A stretch of 64,000 bases of DNA from Candidatus Thorarchaeota archaeon (GTDB lineage: Archaea > Asgardarchaeota > Thorarchaeia > Thorarchaeales > Thorarchaeaceae). Each line of letters starts with the position of its first letter. The stretch's first letter is position 1. The stretch is taken from assembly GCA_963726195.1 (NCBI GenBank), contig CAVSBO010000003.1:1-64000 (forward strand), in the 5' to 3' direction. This document shows, one piece after another, positions 42,985 through 59,354 of this stretch. The notes under the pieces were generated by a model. The model was not told where the DNA came from. It did no database searches and was given only the letters and a program-made list of their open reading frames with translations. Both the position numbers and the translations under genes were made by a program.

Positions 42985-44172
42985 CTAGCTTGTTTGCTGA
43001 TTCGTTGACTTCACGAAGAGTTCTGCCGTCATCCTGAACAAGTAGTCAACACCTTGACCGCTCATGCACGATGTTTCTACAAAAGCCACAGGGTACAGCT
43101 TCTCCCCTGAACCTAGTTTCGCCGCAATGTCACTTGCGAGCTTCAGTCCCTCTTCTTGTGACACGGGTGTTTCTCTGTCGACAAGGGGCGCGCTTGCTCG
43201 AAGGTCGGTCTTGTTCCCGACAATGACAAGTGGTGTGCGTGGTCGCGCGGCCGTTGTGCTTTCCTTAAGCCAGAAATCGATGCTCTCGAAGGACCAGCGG
43301 TCAGAAGTACTGTACACGATGATGATCACATCGGTTCCCTGATAGAAGGCCTTTCTCGTTACTCTAGATACAGAAGCAGCATCAAATGACCAGACCTGCA
43401 ACCTTACCATGTACTCATCGAGTTCAACTACCTTCTCTGATACATACGGCCTCTTTTCTGCCTCGGCACCCGGTTCCAGCGGTTTCAGTGCTCCCTTCTG
43501 GATCAGACATGACTTACCAACGCCCTCTTCACCCAGGATCAGGGCTTTCGCGATTACTTCTGTCTTTGGTAGTCCGGTCGATAGAGAAGCTCTTTCACCT
43601 GAAACGCCCGAGACCTCAGGCGAGGCTCCCTCTGGTATGGCTGTTCGAAATCGAGGGGCACCAACTATCTCTTCGGTCCCTTCAACATCAATCTTGATTC
43701 TGCTTTTCTCAGGAACCGAACCAGAGAAGCTCTTGGGTCTAGACGCGAGAAACGAGTCACTCAGCGATTCCACGACGCTCAGTGCCTCTTCGACATCACG
43801 ATACTCAATCCCTGAAATCTCGCCTTTCGGCTCAGCTTTGACCGCGTCGGGAGCGACGGCCTCTGACAGATTCTTGGCCTTGCCCGGCGGGGGTTTCTTC
43901 TTCGCCTTCTTTTTGGCTGCATTCGCGGTTGATGCCCTTCTAGCGGCGAGAGCTTCTGATTTCTCTGTTGGTTCCAAGTCTGAGACTATCCTCTTCACCT
44001 GGGGCACACCTAGTTTCTGAAGAGTCTCTTTGGCGACGCTCGGAGCTAGCTTCTTGCCCGCCTGCCGGAAGTAGCCCTCGAGGTCTGAGCAGACGTCATC
44101 AAATGACCTGTTCCTTGTTGGAATCTTCCGCTTTAGGACGCCCTTATCGCGGACCTCAACGTAACTGGGCAA
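42985..44172 (-). CDS. Rab/Ras-like small GTPase domain with long N-terminal extension
   Basis: G1 GEEGVGKS, RLQVW, FYQGTDVIIIVY, G4 VGNKTDL, G5 ETSC; G3 degenerate. Confidence 0.85.
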   Translation of the reverse strand: MPSYVEVRDKGVLKRKIPTRNRSFDDVCSDLEGYFRQAGKKLAPSVAKETLQKLGVPQVKRIVSDLEPTEKSEALAARRASTANAAKKKAKKKPPPGKAKNLSEAVAPDAVKAEPKGEISGIEYRDVEEALSVVESLSDSFLASRPKSFSGSVPEKSRIKIDVEGTEEIVGAPRFRTAIPEGASPEVSGVSGERASLSTGLPKTEVIAKALILGEEGVGKSCLIQKGALKPLEPGAEAEKRPYVSEKVVELDEYMVRLQVWSFDAASVSRVTRKAFYQGTDVIIIVYSTSDRWSFESIDFWLKESTTAARPRTPLVIVGNKTDLRASAPLVDRETPVSQEEGLKLASDIAAKLGSGEKLYPVAFVETSCMSGQGVDYLFRMTAELFVKSTNQQTS

Positions 44173-45051: not shown

Positions 45052-46895
45052 CTAACTCTGAGTCTTCTCTCTCAGCTCTCTGCGGAGAACCTTTCCGACC
45101 ATTGTCTTCGGCAAGTCAGTAACGAACTCGACTGATGTTGGAACCTTGTAGACGGCCATCTTCTCTTTGCAGAACTTGCGAATCTCTTCCTCAGTTGCGG
45201 TCTTGCCCGGCTGAAGAATGATGAACGCCTTCACGGTCTCCCCACGCACCTTGTCAGGCACGCCAATGACTGCGGCTTCCTTGACTGCCGGATGCTCGAA
45301 CAGAATCTCTTCCACATCTCTTGGCCAGACCTTGTATCCTGCGGCATTGATCAAGTCCTTCTTGCGGTCGACTATGAAAGTCCACCCATCTTTGTCCATC
45401 TTGGCAATGTCGCCGGTGAGTAGCCAGCCATCCTTAGAAAGTACAGCGGCTGTTTCGTCAGGTCGGTTGTGATAGCCCATCATAACTTGTGGTCCCTTGA
45501 CGGCAAGTTCACCAATCTCATCAGGCCCCAAGACCTTTGAAGAGTTCTCAAGGTCTACTATCCTGCTGTAGGTACTCGGGAATGGGAGCCCTATCGAACC
45601 GATTTTTCGGAGGCCTTTGTCCAAGGGGTTTGCGTGAGTGACTGGAGACGCCTCAGTCAAACCGTATCCTTCGATGATGATTGCGTTCGTCGCTTCCTCA
45701 AACCTCTTGGTGACTTCAGCTGGCAATGCCATAGCGCCTGCGATTGCCATCTTCAGAGAGGTAAGCTTGTACTTCTTCACATCGGGGTGGCTATAGATGG
45801 AAATCGCCATTGTAGACACTATTGGGAACATTGTCGGTTTGAGGTTGTTAATCTCCTCCAACAGATGCTTGACGTCACGCGGATTAGGAATCAGGATTAT
45901 GCCGCTTGCCCATGATATGGCCAAGTTCATTGACACGGTCTGTCCGAATATGTGCTGCATTGGAAGCGCTGCCACAAAGACCTCTTTACCTTTGGTGGCA
46001 ATCCAGTCCATCCAAGCGCCACACTGAGCGCAGTTCGCCTTCAAGTTGTTGTGTGTTAGCATTGCGGCCTTGGGAGTTCCGGTGGTTCCGCCTGTGAACT
46101 GATAGACAGCGAGGTCCTTCGCCGGATCGATGGTGACCTTCGGGGCTTCGGGCTTAGCTGCCGCAAGAAAATCGAGCCAATTGCGGTCACCCTTGCGAAG
46201 GGGAGGAACATCCTTCATCTCATTCTTGTAAACGGTCTTTGGGGCAAGAGCTTTTTCGCTGAGCCGAGAGGATCCCAGCCGGCCGTGACTATGACGTTTT
46301 CGAGGTCGGATTCTTTGCGAACTTCCTCGACAAGGCGGTAGAAGAAGTTGAGAACCACAATCGTCTTTGCTTTCGTGTCCTGCAAGTATGTCCTAAGCTC
46401 TTTTGCTACGCTCAATGGGTTGATTGGTGCAACGATGGCGCCGCACTTCAGTGCTGCGAAGTATGATATTACGAACTGAGGACAGTTTGGAAGCATTATC
46501 GCGACCGTATCACCCTTCTTGACACCAAGTGATGCGAATCCATTCGCCGCCTTGTCTATGAATGTGCCAAGTTCCTTGTAGGTGACCTTGATGCCTTCGT
46601 AGTATAGGGCGACGTTGTTTGGAAACTCCGCAATAGCCTTGTCAAGCTGGGCGTACAATGGTCCATCTGGAATCTTGATGTCCGGCGGAGTCTTGCCGAC
46701 ATAGCTCTTCAGCCAAGGTCTTTCCTCTCTTGGGGGTGCGGCCATGGGCTTCGGAGCAGTGGGAGCTGGAGCTGCAGCTGGCTTTGGAGCTGGAGCTGGT
46801 TTCGGGGCAGGAGCTGGAGCTGCTGGAGCTGGTTTCGGTGGGGCAGCAGCAGGCTTCTTCTCCTCCTTCTTGGGTTTCGCTTCTTTTTTAGCCAT
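45052..46895 (-). CDS. fadD: Long-chain fatty acid--CoA ligase with Pro/Ala/Lys-rich N-terminal extension (one frameshift)
   Basis: FTGGTTGTPK, EGYGLTEASP, TGDIA, DRKKDLI, LPKTMVGK. Confidence 0.92.
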
Positions 46896-53594: not shown

Positions 53595-54358
53595 CTACTT
53601 GATTGCCGAGTAGATCTCTTGCATATGTTGAGTGAATTCACTTTCAGGATGCTTCAGACACACAATGTATCTACTACCTGCCTCAATCAGTATTTGGAGC
53701 ATAGGAATAATAGTGACCACTTTCGTCTTGAACTTCCGCTCAACTTCTTCGATTATGGCCTTGTCTTCGTAGATACTGGGCTTCTTGTTGATTATGATGC
53801 GGGTATCCGGCACCTGCAGCTTGTTGGCAACGCTCAAAGTCGCCGCTGTCCCCAGCAGATCTTGTTCATCGATTCTGGCCACTACGAGTAGAAAGTCCGT
53901 TGTCGCCATCGATAACAGAGTTTCGCGGTCGAGACCCGGATGGGTGTCGATGATTAGGTAGTCCAAGTTCTTTGCTTTGATTACTTCGCTGAACCCGTTC
54001 TTAAGGTCGCTAACTTCGTAACCTTCCCTGAGAATGCGTGTAATATCGGTGGCGCTCATCGAACTTGGAATCAAGAAAGCTGTCCTCGCTTTATTCCGAG
54101 TTCGCTGGTCATATCCATGCATGCATCCTTGATGTCACACTCCCCTCGCAAGTAGTCATTGAGTGTGTGCTTGAGCTTCTGTCTGCCCAGCCCAAAGATT
54201 ACATGGATACCCGGTGATGCTACGTCGGTATCCATTACGGCGACTCTCTTACCATCGAGGGCCACAACTGCAGCGAGATTCGCCGCTATGTTTGATTTTC
54301 CAGTTCCCCCTCTGAAGCTGTGAATACATACTATCTTGCATGCTATATCAGCGCACAT
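53595..54358 (-). CDS. MinD/ParA family ATPase, RGG variant (one frameshift near 54075)
   Basis: HSFRGGTGKSNIAANLA, VMDTD, YLIIDTHPG, IIINK. Confidence 0.9.
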
Positions 54359-55646
54359 GCTGCATCACCCTATCCGTTTTATATTCGACATAGTTGCCCA
54401 ACGACTTGAGCACTTCAAGTATACGAGCCGCAGGGATTCCCGTTTTGTCAGCTATTTCCTTCAGCGAATATGCTCCTGTGCAGTAACGCCAGACGGCATC
54501 GACTACGCGATAGTCCTTATTATTCATTCCTGCGATTTCTAGGAAGGCTGCGAAGCGCTGGTCCCTTTCCGACATAACAGGAAACAGCTTTGCGATCCTC
54601 ACTATGCCTTTTGAAATGAGGTGCGCCAACACCTCTGTCGTCACTTCTGTTGTGAAGCCCGTCTTCTCCACTATGTCTGCAATTGTATTCTTCTGATCCA
54701 CCGTATTTAGTACAACTATGGCGCTAGCACGCAAGCTGTCCTGTAATCCGGCTAGAATCCTACGTGGGCTGTCCAGCACCTTGGTCACTGGAAGCAAAGG
54801 CACAACAACGTCATAGTCATAGAAGGCGGTTGACTCTGCCAAGTATGTTGGCAGAACCTTCTTCATCTTTGTTAGCTCGAGTGACATGACAGCTGCAAGG
54901 ACCGGCTCCACTATCCTCAGAAGCTCGCCGTTTGGTCTAGCTGCATCGACGACGAAGATGCAATACACTTCATTGTCTGACCTGGTAACGAAGAAGCACG
55001 TCATCGGATCTAGGCTGGTGTGTACGAGAGTGAGGCTCTTCTCCGCGGCCTTTGGACCTGAGCCTAGACCGTTCAAGAGGTCGAGCAAAGCTTCCATCTC
55101 ATAAGTTCTCAAGTTGGATGCTAGGACAAACCCATCATTCGTGAGTGCTGCTCCTCTCATCACACCTGGACTGTTCTCCGCCTGCGCCATAACGACCTTC
55201 AACTGTCTCAAGTCATCGGCGGGCAGGAGACCTATCTTGTAGCGTCTTGCCAGACCGGGAATCCCATCAAATCTCTGGAGCGTAGCCTCTACAGTATCTG
55301 TGAAACCCTTGAACGCTCGGGGATCGCTAGTCTCACGTTTGAGTTCTGTATAGAAAGTGCTCACAAACTGATCTGCCAGGTCGCGAAGGATTACGCGATA
55401 TATCTCGGCGCTGTCTTCCTGTAGGATTAGCGCTACGAACAATAGGTCGCCCTTGCGCAACCAGACGAACTTGTTAGAAGCAAAGGATACGACCCTGATT
55501 TGTTGCTCACTTACCTGCTCCGCTAGAGAACCCATAGCAGAGAGAAAGGCCGCAACCAATTCGTCTAGCTTCTTTGCGCCGCTGACACTGTAATGAAACA
55601 GAGGGATTCCTGTTTCTCGCAGAATGATAACTTCCTTTACCAACAC
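54348..55646 (-). CDS. Longin-roadblock-wHTH-wHTH protein (NPRL2/GATOR1-like)
   Basis: Longin start IILRETGIPLF..AAFLSAM; roadblock-like GAALTNDGFVLASNL; two wHTH (TIADIVEKTG..LISKGIV; CTGAYSLKEIADKTG). Confidence 0.75.
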   Translation of the reverse strand: MLVKEVIILRETGIPLFHYSVSGAKKLDELVAAFLSAMGSLAEQVSEQQIRVVSFASNKFVWLRKGDLLFVALILQEDSAEIYRVILRDLADQFVSTFYTELKRETSDPRAFKGFTDTVEATLQRFDGIPGLARRYKIGLLPADDLRQLKVVMAQAENSPGVMRGAALTNDGFVLASNLRTYEMEALLDLLNGLGSGPKAAEKSLTLVHTSLDPMTCFFVTRSDNEVYCIFVVDAARPNGELLRIVEPVLAAVMSLELTKMKKVLPTYLAESTAFYDYDVVVPLLPVTKVLDSPRRILAGLQDSLRASAIVVLNTVDQKNTIADIVEKTGFTTEVTTEVLAHLISKGIVRIAKLFPVMSERDQRFAAFLEIAGMNNKDYRVVDAVWRYCTGAYSLKEIADKTGIPAARILEVLKSLGNYVEYKTDRVMQHVR

Positions 55647-55744
55647 AAAACCCTCAGCGAGCTGAGAACGACTTCTGAGCCGCTCCCACTGCTATTATAC
55701 CTTGTCAGCGCAATATCCGCATACCAAAACGGGCCCAGGTTCAG

Positions 55745-56647
55745 TTAGACGTTCTCGTGGGTTAGCCCAGTGACTTCTACGAGTTTCCAGCTGACAGCAT
55801 TGCCAAGCTTCCCGAGAACATCGTGCAGTTTCTCAGCAGTGACTCCAATCTTTTCGCCTATTTCGACGAGGGATTTCTCGCCATTGCAGAGCGGTCGTGC
55901 TCGATTCAGGACCTGATTGTCCCGCTTGGGGATGCCAACCATGTCGAGGTAGATGTCGAACCGAGTATCGCTTGTCTGGATAACGGGACACATCTTGAAG
56001 ATCTTGACCACGCCCCATATCACCAGATACTCGACAACCTCTGTTACTTGTTCAATCTCAAGGCCGGATGATTGACTAACATCGTGAATGGAGGTTTTTC
56101 CGTCAATTGCCTCTGTTATCTTGCTGCCAGTGCTGCCAAAATCGCGATGCAGCTCATCCAAAAGCCCCATCGACTTCACCGCCACATCGAACGCTTCTTG
56201 GTTTATCATTGGGACAACAAATGAGCTAAGACTCGATGCTACCGCAAGCACTCCTTCATAGAACGCGAAGGACCTCTTGACCTCATCAGCGAAGCCCTTG
56301 AAGGAATCCTCGAAGAGAACGTCGGCCTTAATCTCCTCTCGGTATCTGGTGAGGAACTTGTGGCTGAGGTCTCTGAGCACAGCCCTCAGGACGCGCTTCT
56401 GTGCACCTGACCCGACCAGAAATATGAACAGGACCTCTTCCTCGGTCTCATAGAGGATTTCCGAGCCTTCAAACGACAAACTCTGTATTGAACGCTCTCC
56501 AAACTCAGCCGCGAAGCTGGAGATAGCACTAAGGAATCCAGACAGCAGAGTGTCGAGCTTCCTGGTCTCATCGGGTGAATAATGAAAGAGAGGAATTCCT
56601 CCTGCCGTGAGAACCATGAACTCGTGCACTTTGAGCGGTCCGGTCAT
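55745..56647 (-). CDS. Longin-wHTH-wHTH protein (NPRL2/GATOR1-like), paralog of the downstream gene
   Basis: VLTAGGIPLF..SGFLSAISSF longin; IDGKTSIHDVS..LVIWGVV; CNGEKSLVEIG..VSWK. Confidence 0.78.
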   Translation of the reverse strand: MTGPLKVHEFMVLTAGGIPLFHYSPDETRKLDTLLSGFLSAISSFAAEFGERSIQSLSFEGSEILYETEEEVLFIFLVGSGAQKRVLRAVLRDLSHKFLTRYREEIKADVLFEDSFKGFADEVKRSFAFYEGVLAVASSLSSFVVPMINQEAFDVAVKSMGLLDELHRDFGSTGSKITEAIDGKTSIHDVSQSSGLEIEQVTEVVEYLVIWGVVKIFKMCPVIQTSDTRFDIYLDMVGIPKRDNQVLNRARPLCNGEKSLVEIGEKIGVTAEKLHDVLGKLGNAVSWKLVEVTGLTHENV

Positions 56648-56799: not shown

Positions 56800-58410
56800 T
56801 TGGGTATGCTTGAGTACAGGGAGTTCCCCCTAAAGAAAGCCACATATTTCGTGTTCGTTTCCCCGGCAATGGCTTACTACATTTACACGATCATCCGACT
56901 GAGTAACCAGGTTCTTTTTCCGACGTTTGGTCGGCAGAATCTGCAGTTCCTAGGAATAGGTCTTGTTGCAGCCGTCGTGACGTTGCTCATTGCTGGATTC
57001 GTTCTTGATCGCATTGAGAGAGGATATGTCATGACAACGGTCGGCGCGATTGTCCCTCTCTTCATAGGTATTGTCGTCGCGCAGATTGGATCTCCGAGCG
57101 CGTTTTCTCCCGGTCTTGAAATGCTATTCACAGTGTCCGTCTTTTCTGGTCTCGCACTCGCATTGCTTAGCTGGATAGTCCAACTCAGCAAGGCGATCGT
57201 GGCCAAGTATCGAGGGAGGGTCGTCGCGGCTTTTATGGCATTATCCTTGATTTTGTTCGCTATCTACTCAGCCCTTCAGTCAAATGGCATAGAACTGTAT
57301 ACCTCCGGAGTTCCAATAATGGAAATCATAGCGATTGTCGCCATATTAGCGCGTCTTGCGTTCAAACCCTGGAAAATGGAATACAAGCGGCTTGCAGTTC
57401 AGGAAAAAGCATTCTCGTATTTCGTTCCGGTCATGATTCTCATGGCTGGTCATATGCTATGGTACTTCGGCACGCAGTTAGGTATAATCAAAGTGCTTCA
57501 AGATGCCGGGTACACGACTTACCAGTCTTTGGGTCAGTATTCAGGTCTCGCACTCTATGAGCCAGTCTTGATGGTTGTAGGTATTATCGTGTCAGGTGCT
57601 ATTGCTGACAGCAGAGGAAGAAAGAGCGCTTTCACGATGGGGGTGCTTCTGTTCGGTCTGCTAACGATACTCAGTCCGATTGCTGTAGAAGCGGTCCAAC
57701 TTTACGCGGCTTCTCTCTTGGTTTCCGAACGGTTCATTGAGGGATTCTTGCTCGGACTTCTTCTATTGCTCATTTGGCCCGAAATCGGCTCGCCGAGGAC
57801 CAAGAGCCGAAGGACTGCTGCCGTTTGGGTTTTCTTTGCAGGGTACGTAGCCCTCTTCTGGGCCGTGTCATTTCAGGTATCATTTGTTGTCAATTGGCAT
57901 GCTCCTGTCGAACTGCGAGTGTTGGGCACGCAGATAGCGATTCTTCTAGCAATGGTTGCTCTCTACAGGTCGGCGCCCATTCCTGAGGTTCTTGGAAACG
58001 AAGTGGAGATGGAAGAGCTGAGCCTCGATTTCGACGAACGTCTTGTGAAACAGACAGTCGAGCAGTATGTCGAGTCGGGCGAATTCGAGTCGATTCGAAG
58101 CCAGATCGATATCGCCGGCATGCAAGAGCTCAGCGATAAGGACATGCACGAGATAATTGGTCCGGACTTCGAAAAAGTTCTCCCGTTGCGCAAGATTCCG
58201 GGCATTGGCGCGAGGATGGAAGAAAGACTTCGAGAAGCCGGTTATGAGTCAGCGGCTCAGCTCGCTGGGGAGACTCCTCAAAGATTGTCATCAAAGGTGA
58301 AGGGGCTCAGTGAGGCGCAGGCCGACAAGATTCTCGGAAGTGTTCGTGAAGCGGTTAGGGATGCCATGAAGTCAAAGCCTGACAAAGACGACGAGAAGAA
58401 AAGACCCTGA
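56800..58410 (+). CDS. MFS-fold membrane protein fused to C-terminal HhH domain
   Basis: About 12 TMs, GFVLDRIER and GAIADSRGRK motif A; LRKIPGIGARMEERLREAGY...GLSEAQADKI. Confidence 0.78.
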   Translation: MGMLEYREFPLKKATYFVFVSPAMAYYIYTIIRLSNQVLFPTFGRQNLQFLGIGLVAAVVTLLIAGFVLDRIERGYVMTTVGAIVPLFIGIVVAQIGSPSAFSPGLEMLFTVSVFSGLALALLSWIVQLSKAIVAKYRGRVVAAFMALSLILFAIYSALQSNGIELYTSGVPIMEIIAIVAILARLAFKPWKMEYKRLAVQEKAFSYFVPVMILMAGHMLWYFGTQLGIIKVLQDAGYTTYQSLGQYSGLALYEPVLMVVGIIVSGAIADSRGRKSAFTMGVLLFGLLTILSPIAVEAVQLYAASLLVSERFIEGFLLGLLLLLIWPEIGSPRTKSRRTAAVWVFFAGYVALFWAVSFQVSFVVNWHAPVELRVLGTQIAILLAMVALYRSAPIPEVLGNEVEMEELSLDFDERLVKQTVEQYVESGEFESIRSQIDIAGMQELSDKDMHEIIGPDFEKVLPLRKIPGIGARMEERLREAGYESAAQLAGETPQRLSSKVKGLSEAQADKILGSVREAVRDAMKSKPDKDDEKKRP

Positions 58411-58421
58411 GTGACTATCGG

Positions 58422-59354
58422 TCAGCTTCTCGCTCCCTCGGTCCCAGCAGAATAGTATGCCAATCCGGTTCCTCCGAGAAGGTCCGTGTTGTTCATCTGC
58501 TTGCCGCAATTAGCACAGGACAGCACTATCTTTGGTTCCTTTGTTGCCTCTCCGCAGCCTTTGCAGAGCAGTTCTACATCAATGATACTTAGTTCCGAAA
58601 CCTTTGCTGGTTGCTTGCATCGCTGGCAATGAACCTCTGTCAGGTCGTCGACAATCACGGTTTGAGTCTTATTGCCGCACTTTGGGCAATACACCAGATA
58701 GACCTTGTAGATATCACTACTTCCGCACGAAGGACAAGTGAGGTGCAGAGTTACCTCCGTGCCGCCACACTGTTTGCATTCGACCTTTCGTCCATAGGTC
58801 TTGGGAACCAAGCGCCCTGCGCGTTCGAGATCCTTAAGGAGTCTCCAGACCTCCTCCTCATCGGCTCCCAAGTACTCAGAAGCCTGAGGGTACCTCGCTG
58901 TCGCCTTAAGGATGTGCTTGGGAATGAGTGCGGGCACCCTACCCGATTCCATGTCTTCAACAAGCCTCGTCACATGCGGGTTAGAGAGCAGTTCGTCACC
59001 CGAAGTCTCTGCGATTAGTTCCTGCAATAGCAGGAAAGCCCGGGTTATCTCTGTGTCCCAAGTGCTGCTGTTGAAGTTAATCCGGCCTACGAGTCTTAGT
59101 AGGTTTCTCTCAACGACTGAGGGTTCATCGCTGTCATCAAGCAACACTGCAATGCAGTTGGGCGTATCAAGGTATGATACCATCAGTCCCTTCGCCAGCT
59201 TTGTGTAACCCACTTTTGCCTCTTGGTTTATACCATGGCCCATGAAAATGACTATGGCATCTTCGGTCGTGAGAGGATTGTTCTCAGGGTATGATCTGCC
59301 TAAGAGGGGACCAAGAGTTTGGTCCCACCAAATGGCATAGATGGCCTTAGGCAT
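58422..59354 (-). CDS. uDENN/longin-like domain fused to TackOD1-like wHTH + multi-zinc-ribbon domain
   Basis: IYAIWWDQTLGPLLGRSYPE start; RYP..LLKDLERAG.L; six CxxC pairs. Confidence 0.72.
   Translation of the reverse strand: MPKAIYAIWWDQTLGPLLGRSYPENNPLTTEDAIVIFMGHGINQEAKVGYTKLAKGLMVSYLDTPNCIAVLLDDSDEPSVVERNLLRLVGRINFNSSTWDTEITRAFLLLQELIAETSGDELLSNPHVTRLVEDMESGRVPALIPKHILKATARYPQASEYLGADEEEVWRLLKDLERAGRLVPKTYGRKVECKQCGGTEVTLHLTCPSCGSSDIYKVYLVYCPKCGNKTQTVIVDDLTEVHCQRCKQPAKVSELSIIDVELLCKGCGEATKEPKIVLSCANCGKQMNNTDLLGGTGLAYYSAGTEGARS

Follow-up and report, generated by a model that had tools for sequence, protein, structure and literature searches.

The window examined here is a stretch of 64,000 nucleotides at the start of contig CAVSBO010000003.1 from a Candidatus Thorarchaeota archaeon, whose genome (Thorarchaeia; 2.9 Mb on 19 contigs) is 88.9% complete. 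It carries two paralogous genes, termed A and B, which encode longin proteins with paired C-terminal winged helices, followed on the same strand by a MinD/ParA-type ATPase of the SIMIBI class in which Arg takes the place of the signature Lys of the Walker A motif. The explanation we favor, at a rough probability of 0.5, is that A, B and the ATPase make up one operon that codes for a nucleotide switch and for the longin/roadblock partner of this switch. This arrangement suggests that an NPRL2/3-like regulator here serves an ATPase rather than a small GTPase. A and B are most likely the cognate partner of this particular ATPase, since the operon is tight and has been kept over a long time, since genes for ParA/MinD ATPases usually lie next to those for their partner or cargo (bioRxiv 10.1101/2022.06.09.495121), and since A and B fold like dimeric platforms controlling P-loop switches.

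Gene order in Thorarchaeia and Hermodarchaeota

A, B and the ATPase gene are all co-oriented on the minus strand of the window (Table 1). The stop codon of B occupies positions 54348-54350 and the ATG of the ATPase positions 54356-54358, and the resulting 11-bp overlap suggests translational coupling of the two genes. Both the pair of co-oriented longin/double winged-helix paralogs and the overlap had been described in an initial annotation of the window, and both hold: the open reading frames are placed as claimed, BLASTP and profile comparisons (below) agree on the paralogy, the structure models show the winged helices, and the overlap can be read directly from the DNA.

We mapped the genes by tblastn in 40 Thorarchaeia loci from 17 genera. 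The ATPase gene lies downstream of A or B on the same strand in 37 of the 40, and in 36 of these 37 linked loci the gap that separates it from the preceding gene is shorter than 130 nucleotides. The complete order of A, B and ATPase on one strand was found in 31 loci, with a B-to-ATPase alignment gap of -26 to +59 nucleotides in 30 of them and of 1217 nucleotides in the remaining one. Five loci, all belonging to one genus, have A directly followed by the ATPase; one, from a second Thorarchaeia family, has a single B-like gene with the ATPase; one is cut by a contig end; and two have lost the linkage. Where 2-3.7 kb have been inserted between A and B (L035, L037 and L041), B is still joined to the ATPase. 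The latter shows the highest conservation among the three proteins—with identities of 71-95%, against ranges of 47-81% (A) and 36-76% (B)—and is encoded in a single copy per genome. The A family itself occurs in 74 of the 87 genomes of the class, including 23 of the 24 high-quality ones.

The gene order extends to a second lineage. The Arg-variant ATPase is present in 18 of 19 genomes of one family titled Hermodarchaeota, and all ten loci compared there consist of a membrane protein gene, one B-like gene of 422 codons and the ATPase gene, with gaps of 84-109 nucleotides; the B-like protein is ~30% identical to B. Only Hermodarchaeota-type genomes were matched in a single-protein scan for related loci. 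The synteny survey proposed with the initial annotation therefore came out in its favor, the linkage being kept across Thorarchaeia and extending to Hermodarchaeota. Its further claim—that the genomic partner of the paralogs is a MinD-type ATPase rather than a Rag/Ras GTPase—is likewise borne out, as no small GTPase gene was found in the conserved block among the 50 loci compared.

The composition of the block varies on the side of the longin proteins. In the genus that has A alone (loci L051-L053, L061 and L062 of genomes G058, G062, G067, G065 and G063), A and the ATPase are 88-122 nucleotides apart, and searches with A and with a two-winged-helix profile revealed no full-length B elsewhere in the five genomes. 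Coordinates suggest that A also stands directly before the ATPase, at a distance of 233 nucleotides, in genome G030 of another genus. Because B is missing from five genomes of one Thorarchaeia genus, and because a single B-like gene is found in Hermodarchaeota and in one other Thorarchaeia family, an A-B heterodimer is, judging from gene content, not obligatory.

Two flanking genes accompany the cluster. A polytopic membrane protein, transcribed divergently from the longin genes in both lineages, adjoins A in 39 of the 39 Thorarchaeia loci that hold A, and adjoins the B-like gene in 10 of the 10 Hermodarchaeota loci, where it ends in a Lys-rich tail. A TackOD1 protein is encoded in 36 of the same 39 Thorarchaeia loci, with the remaining three cut nearby by a contig end, and was not seen in the Hermodarchaeota loci. 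The N-terminal half of this protein showed no significant similarity to the A family (hhalign E-value (E) of 0.077).

Table 1. Features of the A/B-ATPase locus and its immediate neighbors (positions in the window).
Feature	Position	Strand	Description
Gene A	55745-56647	minus	300 residues; longin ~3-137, helical linker, two winged-helix domains ~183-226 and ~241-291; NPRL2-like architecture
Gene B, paralog of A	54348-55646	minus	432 residues, GTG start; longin 1-130, roadblock insert 139-260, two winged-helix domains ~303-423
MinD/ParA-type ATPase (SIMIBI class)	53595-54358	minus	~253 residues, in two frames here; Pfam and NCBIfam matches on both pieces
ATPase N-terminal piece	54071-54358	minus	open reading frame
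ATPase C-terminal piece	53595-54122	minus	open reading frame
Frameshift site in ATPase	54077-54078	minus	one base fewer than relatives; DNA alignment and metagenome contigs
Overlap of B stop and ATPase start	54348-54358	minus	11 bp, ATGTGCGCTGA
Membrane protein, divergent neighbor	56800-58410	plus	536 residues, polytopic; MFS-like GxxxDxxGRK motif, C-terminal helix-hairpin-helix (HHH_5 E 4e-9)
TackOD1 protein, neighbor	58422-59354	minus	310 residues; C-terminal TackOD1 zinc-ribbon output domain (PF18551 E 1.1e-18)

The ATPase and the folds of A and B

The ATPase has the deviant Walker A motif HSFRGGTGKS, together with a switch I DTD and a switch II DTHPG. The ParA/MinD superfamily pattern is KGGxGK[ST]; all 37 orthologs read share the HSFRGGTGKS sequence with its replacement of the signature Lys by Arg, in keeping with its earlier description as an atypical member of the MinD/ParA group. 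The Pfam models ParA, CbiA and AAA_31 match the N-terminal piece above cut-off, and an intact ortholog scores 81.3 bits with minD_arch (TIGR01969; cut-off 201.75) and 56.5 bits with minD_bact (TIGR01968; cut-off 212.9). The nearest solved relatives are MinD-1 of A. fulgidus (1hyq, E 1.5e-12) and FleN. No C-terminal amphipathic membrane-targeting helix was found, the orthologs ending a few residues past the aligned MinD core. The only other ParA/MinD-like loci of the genome lie at C3:893629-894360 and C3:826421-826993; since neither reaches the archaeal MinD cut-off, the organism seems to have no canonical MinD.

The indel suspected near position 54075 is confirmed as one base missing after 54077. 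In a DNA alignment, both congeneric genomes have one extra base at the frameshift (…CTGTTC…, as compared with …CT-TTC… in the window), and contigs from the peat-metagenome runs X1 and X2, ~99.6% identical to the window, show an extra C after 54077 on the plus strand. In run X3, the one with 100% identity to the window, no contig spans this position. The ATPase is one intact frame of ~250 residues in every relative; given the intact frame in the congeners and in the near-identical metagenome contigs, the frameshift reflects either an error of assembly or a lesion specific to the strain. The near-identical contigs are also one base shorter at window position 55664, in the A-B spacer, which leaves the coding sequences unaffected. 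Elsewhere in the window, an AMP-binding (acyl-CoA synthetase-like) enzyme at 45052-46895 on the minus strand is divided into two open reading frames (46215-46895 and 45052-46218) with a 4-nucleotide overlap, which may reflect a second assembly indel or a natural split.

BLASTP aligned A with B over the N-terminal 140 residues (32% identity, E 2e-24) and over the C-terminal 128 residues (34% identity, E 3e-22), and the two family profiles align from end to end (hhalign E 9e-57) around an insert of ~150 residues in B. A K-G-D hairpin is conserved in B. Full-length AlphaFold2 models, built on family alignments, were confident and reached a predicted local distance difference test score (pLDDT) of 84.9 and a predicted template-modeling score (pTM) of 0.77 for A and a pLDDT of 81 for B. 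Two C-terminal winged helices are present in both models, and these domains gave recurring sub-threshold matches to TrmB and HTH_47. When the A model was compared with the PDB by Foldseek, the ten best matches were all chains of NPRL3, NPRL2 or the yeast SEA complex (E 2.8e-8 to 1.2e-6), with longin-only proteins ranking lower (E 1.5e-5 or weaker); the N-terminal longin domain that characterizes NPRL2 and NPRL3 is present. Full-length alignments of A to NPRL3/NPRL2 had a template-modeling (TM) score of only ~0.3, because the domains are differently oriented, and a root-mean-square deviation (rmsd) of 12-17 Å; the rigid aligner covered the longin domain alone. The B model, in turn, matched tri-longin Rab exchange factors first (Mon1/Ccz1, Fuzzy/Inturned and BLOC-3; E 6e-9 to 6e-8), in non-rigid alignments with an rmsd of 8-10 Å, and NPRL2/3 second (E ~1e-6). 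Pfam matches to Fuz_longin_1 were also recorded below threshold, and single-sequence phmmer searches of the PDB with A and with B returned nothing relevant.

The evidence for NPRL2 in the amino acid sequences is consistent but below threshold, with no match above the curated cut-offs of the NPRL2/NPRL3 family profiles (NPR2, NPR3 and HTH_NPRL3). The Pfam model NPR2 (PF06218) scores 10.9 bits on residues 148-219 of A (E 0.19), against a cut-off of 27.5, and A is the sole NPR2 match in the whole 2.9-Mb genome (E 0.22). HTH_NPRL3 (PF24064) matches 6 of 54 family members, with a best E of 3.4e-4, and the generic TrmB and HTH_47 models match more of them; the A-family profile aligns with residues 182-238 of human NPRL2 at E 0.5. 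A search of the ESM Atlas with residues 140-300 of A gave scores of at most 0.79, which is noise level, so that one NPR2 cluster at 0.75 serves as a lead only. A G-[IV]-P turn connects strands 1 and 2 of both proteins. Its Gly is invariant in the A and B families; its Pro does not vary among A proteins and is the consensus at this position in B and in the B-like protein of Hermodarchaeota. This turn sits at the place matching the GP motif that a 2025 survey of longin GAP complexes tied, together with an arginine finger, to Asgard longins, mainly those of Heimdallarchaeia (PMC12290439). An arginine matching the catalytic finger of NPRL2 could not be assigned in A or B, for which no residue-level structural alignment was available, and the 88.9%-complete genome gave no match to IML1/DEPDC5.

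With sequence scores below threshold, A and B are NPRL2/3-like in architecture, and not members of these families by sequence. The initial annotation had taken the pair for a GATOR1-type heterodimer with motif-by-motif likeness to NPRL2, to be checked by HHpred and Foldseek. What survives of this claim is the whole-length fold of A, as seen in its ten best Foldseek matches; the Pfam NPR2 score and the profile comparison with human NPRL2 stay below threshold, and B departs from the GATOR1 type in that its best fold matches are the tri-longin Rab exchange factors.

Candidate mechanism and competing explanations

If the three genes do encode a switch and its partner, A and B would pair through their longin domains—as in NPRL2-NPRL3, Mon1-Ccz1 and MglB dimers—and, in the lineages with a single gene, the protein would form a homodimer. 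The longin platform could then bind the ATP-bound dimer of the ATPase and either control its hydrolysis of ATP, much as a GTPase-activating protein does for a GTPase, or act as an adaptor positioned by the ATPase, with the acidic winged helices serving protein contacts instead of DNA binding. A/B might thus stimulate hydrolysis, stabilize one nucleotide state or themselves be the cargo. As the ATPase has no membrane-targeting helix, the divergent MFS-like membrane protein with its helix-hairpin-helix tail is the likely anchor or input.

Several observations weigh against this explanation. The predicted pairing of A/B with the ATPase rests on gene neighborhood. The known partners of ParA/MinD ATPases act through a basic, disordered N-terminal peptide (bioRxiv 10.1101/2022.06.09.495121); A and B have none, so any mechanism they might follow would be unusual. 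The window copy of the ATPase is frameshifted, and the linkage is broken in two Thorarchaeia genomes, G003 and G007, by rearrangement in the former and by location on separate contigs in the latter. In three further Asgard families (f17-f19), the ATPase is preceded by a TPR protein and a small open reading frame, and the double winged-helix family is unlinked to it; an A-like gene of 343-360 codons lies elsewhere in these genomes, beside unrelated genes, and the small open reading frames show no similarity to A or B. Finally, the double winged-helix family occurs without this ATPase in families f15, f16 and f21.

Some details of these divergent loci deserve mention in their own right. In G003, the ATPase is directly preceded by a short B-like C-terminal remnant (L088:4814-4951), a trace of the rearrangement; the full B gene is 3.3 kb away. 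In loci L079, L080 and L081 (f17 and f18), the ATPase ortholog comes after the TPR protein and an open reading frame of 110-137 codons, and in two of the three it is followed by an open reading frame of ~200 codons and an ADP-forming acyl-CoA synthetase-like gene; these neighbors may represent a different partner set. Across Asgard archaea, the double winged-helix module was detected in 133 of 400 genomes. It is present in all families that have the ATPase, but also in some that lack it; we make no statistical claim on this co-occurrence, since related genomes are not independent samples.

The competing explanation that fares best has A and B regulating a Rag-, Arf- or Rab-like small GTPase encoded elsewhere, as GATOR1 does, with the ATPase co-transcribed for another purpose such as positioning the complex. 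We consider it unlikely. In its favor, every relative of the fold with a solved structure acts on small GTPases, the genome encodes several of these proteins, including a Ras-family fusion inside the window, and other Asgard lineages keep the double winged-helix family without this ATPase. The conserved block of the 50 loci, however, is devoid of small GTPase genes; the MinD-like ATPase, often in overlapping frames, is the only NTPase kept beside A/B; and no homolog of DEPDC5/IML1 was found in the 88.9%-complete genome. The Ras-family fusion (42985-44172, minus strand; 395 residues) joins an N-terminal half of ~200 residues to a C-terminal GTPase domain (PF00071 E 7e-20), and lies ~10 kb from the cluster, outside the conserved block.

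A ParA-type DNA-handling system is less probable again. In this view the ATPase would sit on the nucleoid, A and B would serve it as DNA-binding adaptors of winged-helix type in the manner of ParB, SegB or AspA, and the membrane protein would tether DNA by its helix-hairpin-helix tail. Archaeal ParA systems with winged-helix partners are known (PMC8682754), the TrmB, HTH_47 and MarR models score at least as high as the NPRL-specific ones, the neighboring membrane protein does carry a helix-hairpin-helix domain, and B has a mildly basic second winged helix, with a median isoelectric point (pI) of 8.1. The charge and the fold of A point the other way: the protein is strongly acidic (median pI 4.8, median net charge -16), its first recognition helix has a net charge of -4, and its best whole-length fold matches are the protein-binding NPRL2/3 chains. 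The median pI of B is 5.5 and that of the ATPase 8.3. No repeat or centromere-like site is known here, no search aimed at one having been made. DNA binding by A/B is therefore disfavored on account of the acidic winged helices, although for the second winged helix of B this argument is inconclusive. Synteny without functional coupling, in which the genes would be neighbors merely by inheritance within one related clade, is very improbable: Thorarchaeia and Hermodarchaeota may be closely related, so that their loci would not be independent, and the linkage is absent in f17-f19, but the gene order has outlasted insertions, the loss of B and rearrangements, and operon-scale spacing with overlapping frames persists across 17 genera and a second lineage, with B identity down to ~30%.

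Relation to known systems and significance

The operon can be compared with several known systems. As in NPRL2/NPRL3 of GATOR1 (Npr2/Npr3 of the yeast SEA complex), two paralogs have an N-terminal longin domain followed by C-terminal winged helices; unlike in GATOR1, the neighboring NTPase is a MinD-type ATPase instead of a Rag GTPase, no DEPDC5 was found in the genome, and the turn motif is G-[IV]-P rather than GP. NPRL3 is, in addition, extended in the middle, where a further segment separates the longin domain from the C-terminal domains; this segment is a possible counterpart of the roadblock insert of B. B resembles the tri-longin Rab exchange factors (Mon1-Ccz1, Fuzzy-Inturned and HPS1-HPS4), which act as paralog heterodimers, in its tandem longin/roadblock-type domains, and differs in having two such domains followed by winged helices where these factors have three longin domains. 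In the MglA-MglB system, by contrast, MglA is a TRAFAC-class small GTPase and MglB has neither longin nor winged helices. To our knowledge, platforms built from longin and roadblock domains have been known only as regulators of small GTPases.

With ParA/MinD systems that have adjacent partners (MinD-MinE, ParA-ParB, McdA-McdB and archaeal MinD4), the operon shares a deviant Walker A ATPase beside a presumed partner, and archaeal MinD and FleN/FlhG are its nearest relatives of solved structure. The differences are the Arg in place of the signature Lys, the missing membrane-targeting helix, a score far below the minD_arch cut-off and, as presumed partners, folded longin proteins that lack a basic N-terminal peptide. 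The alpha subunit of the SRP receptor also combines a longin domain (SRX) with a SIMIBI-class GTPase, as a fusion and not as an operon; the SRX longin binds the Arf-like beta subunit and not the SIMIBI domain.

The NPRL2-like assignment in Thorarchaeia is not new. Liu et al. (bioRxiv 10.1101/2020.10.19.343400; Nature 2021) described a family with a longin and an "NPRL2-specific C-terminal domain" in most Thorarchaeia and a few Loki genomes, as well as NPRL2-like longins fused to two-component domains, and A and B very probably belong to this same family. The text of the preprint contains neither "MinD" nor "ATPase", and no operon, paralog pair or roadblock insert is described there. The initial annotation's view that the combination was undescribed thus fails for the longin family and stands for the link to the ATPase: within an incomplete coverage of the literature, no paper was found that joins NPRL2-like or longin proteins with MinD in archaea, and the operon of A/B with an Arg-variant MinD-like ATPase and an MFS/helix-hairpin-helix membrane protein appears to be undescribed.

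Longin/roadblock platforms are central to ideas on the Asgard origin of eukaryotic trafficking and of mTORC1 nutrient sensing. For the Asgard proteins that most resemble NPRL2/NPRL3 in shape, the operon, whose products are all small and soluble, offers a concrete and unexpected candidate partner in the Arg-variant MinD-like ATPase. As a long shot, an NPRL2/NPRL3-type longin dimer might first have regulated a MinD-like SIMIBI ATPase, as its activator or effector, while docked to an MFS-type transporter-like membrane protein; the operon would then be an archaeal nutrient or positioning switch, and eukaryotes would later have changed the NTPase partner, joining GATOR1 to Rag GTPases and lysosomal transporters. 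Should the partnership of A/B with the ATPase prove false, their real substrate would have to be sought among the many small GTPases of Asgard archaea. Should it prove true, the principle of longin regulators would extend to the SIMIBI class, and an orphan family of archaeal MinD proteins would gain a function.

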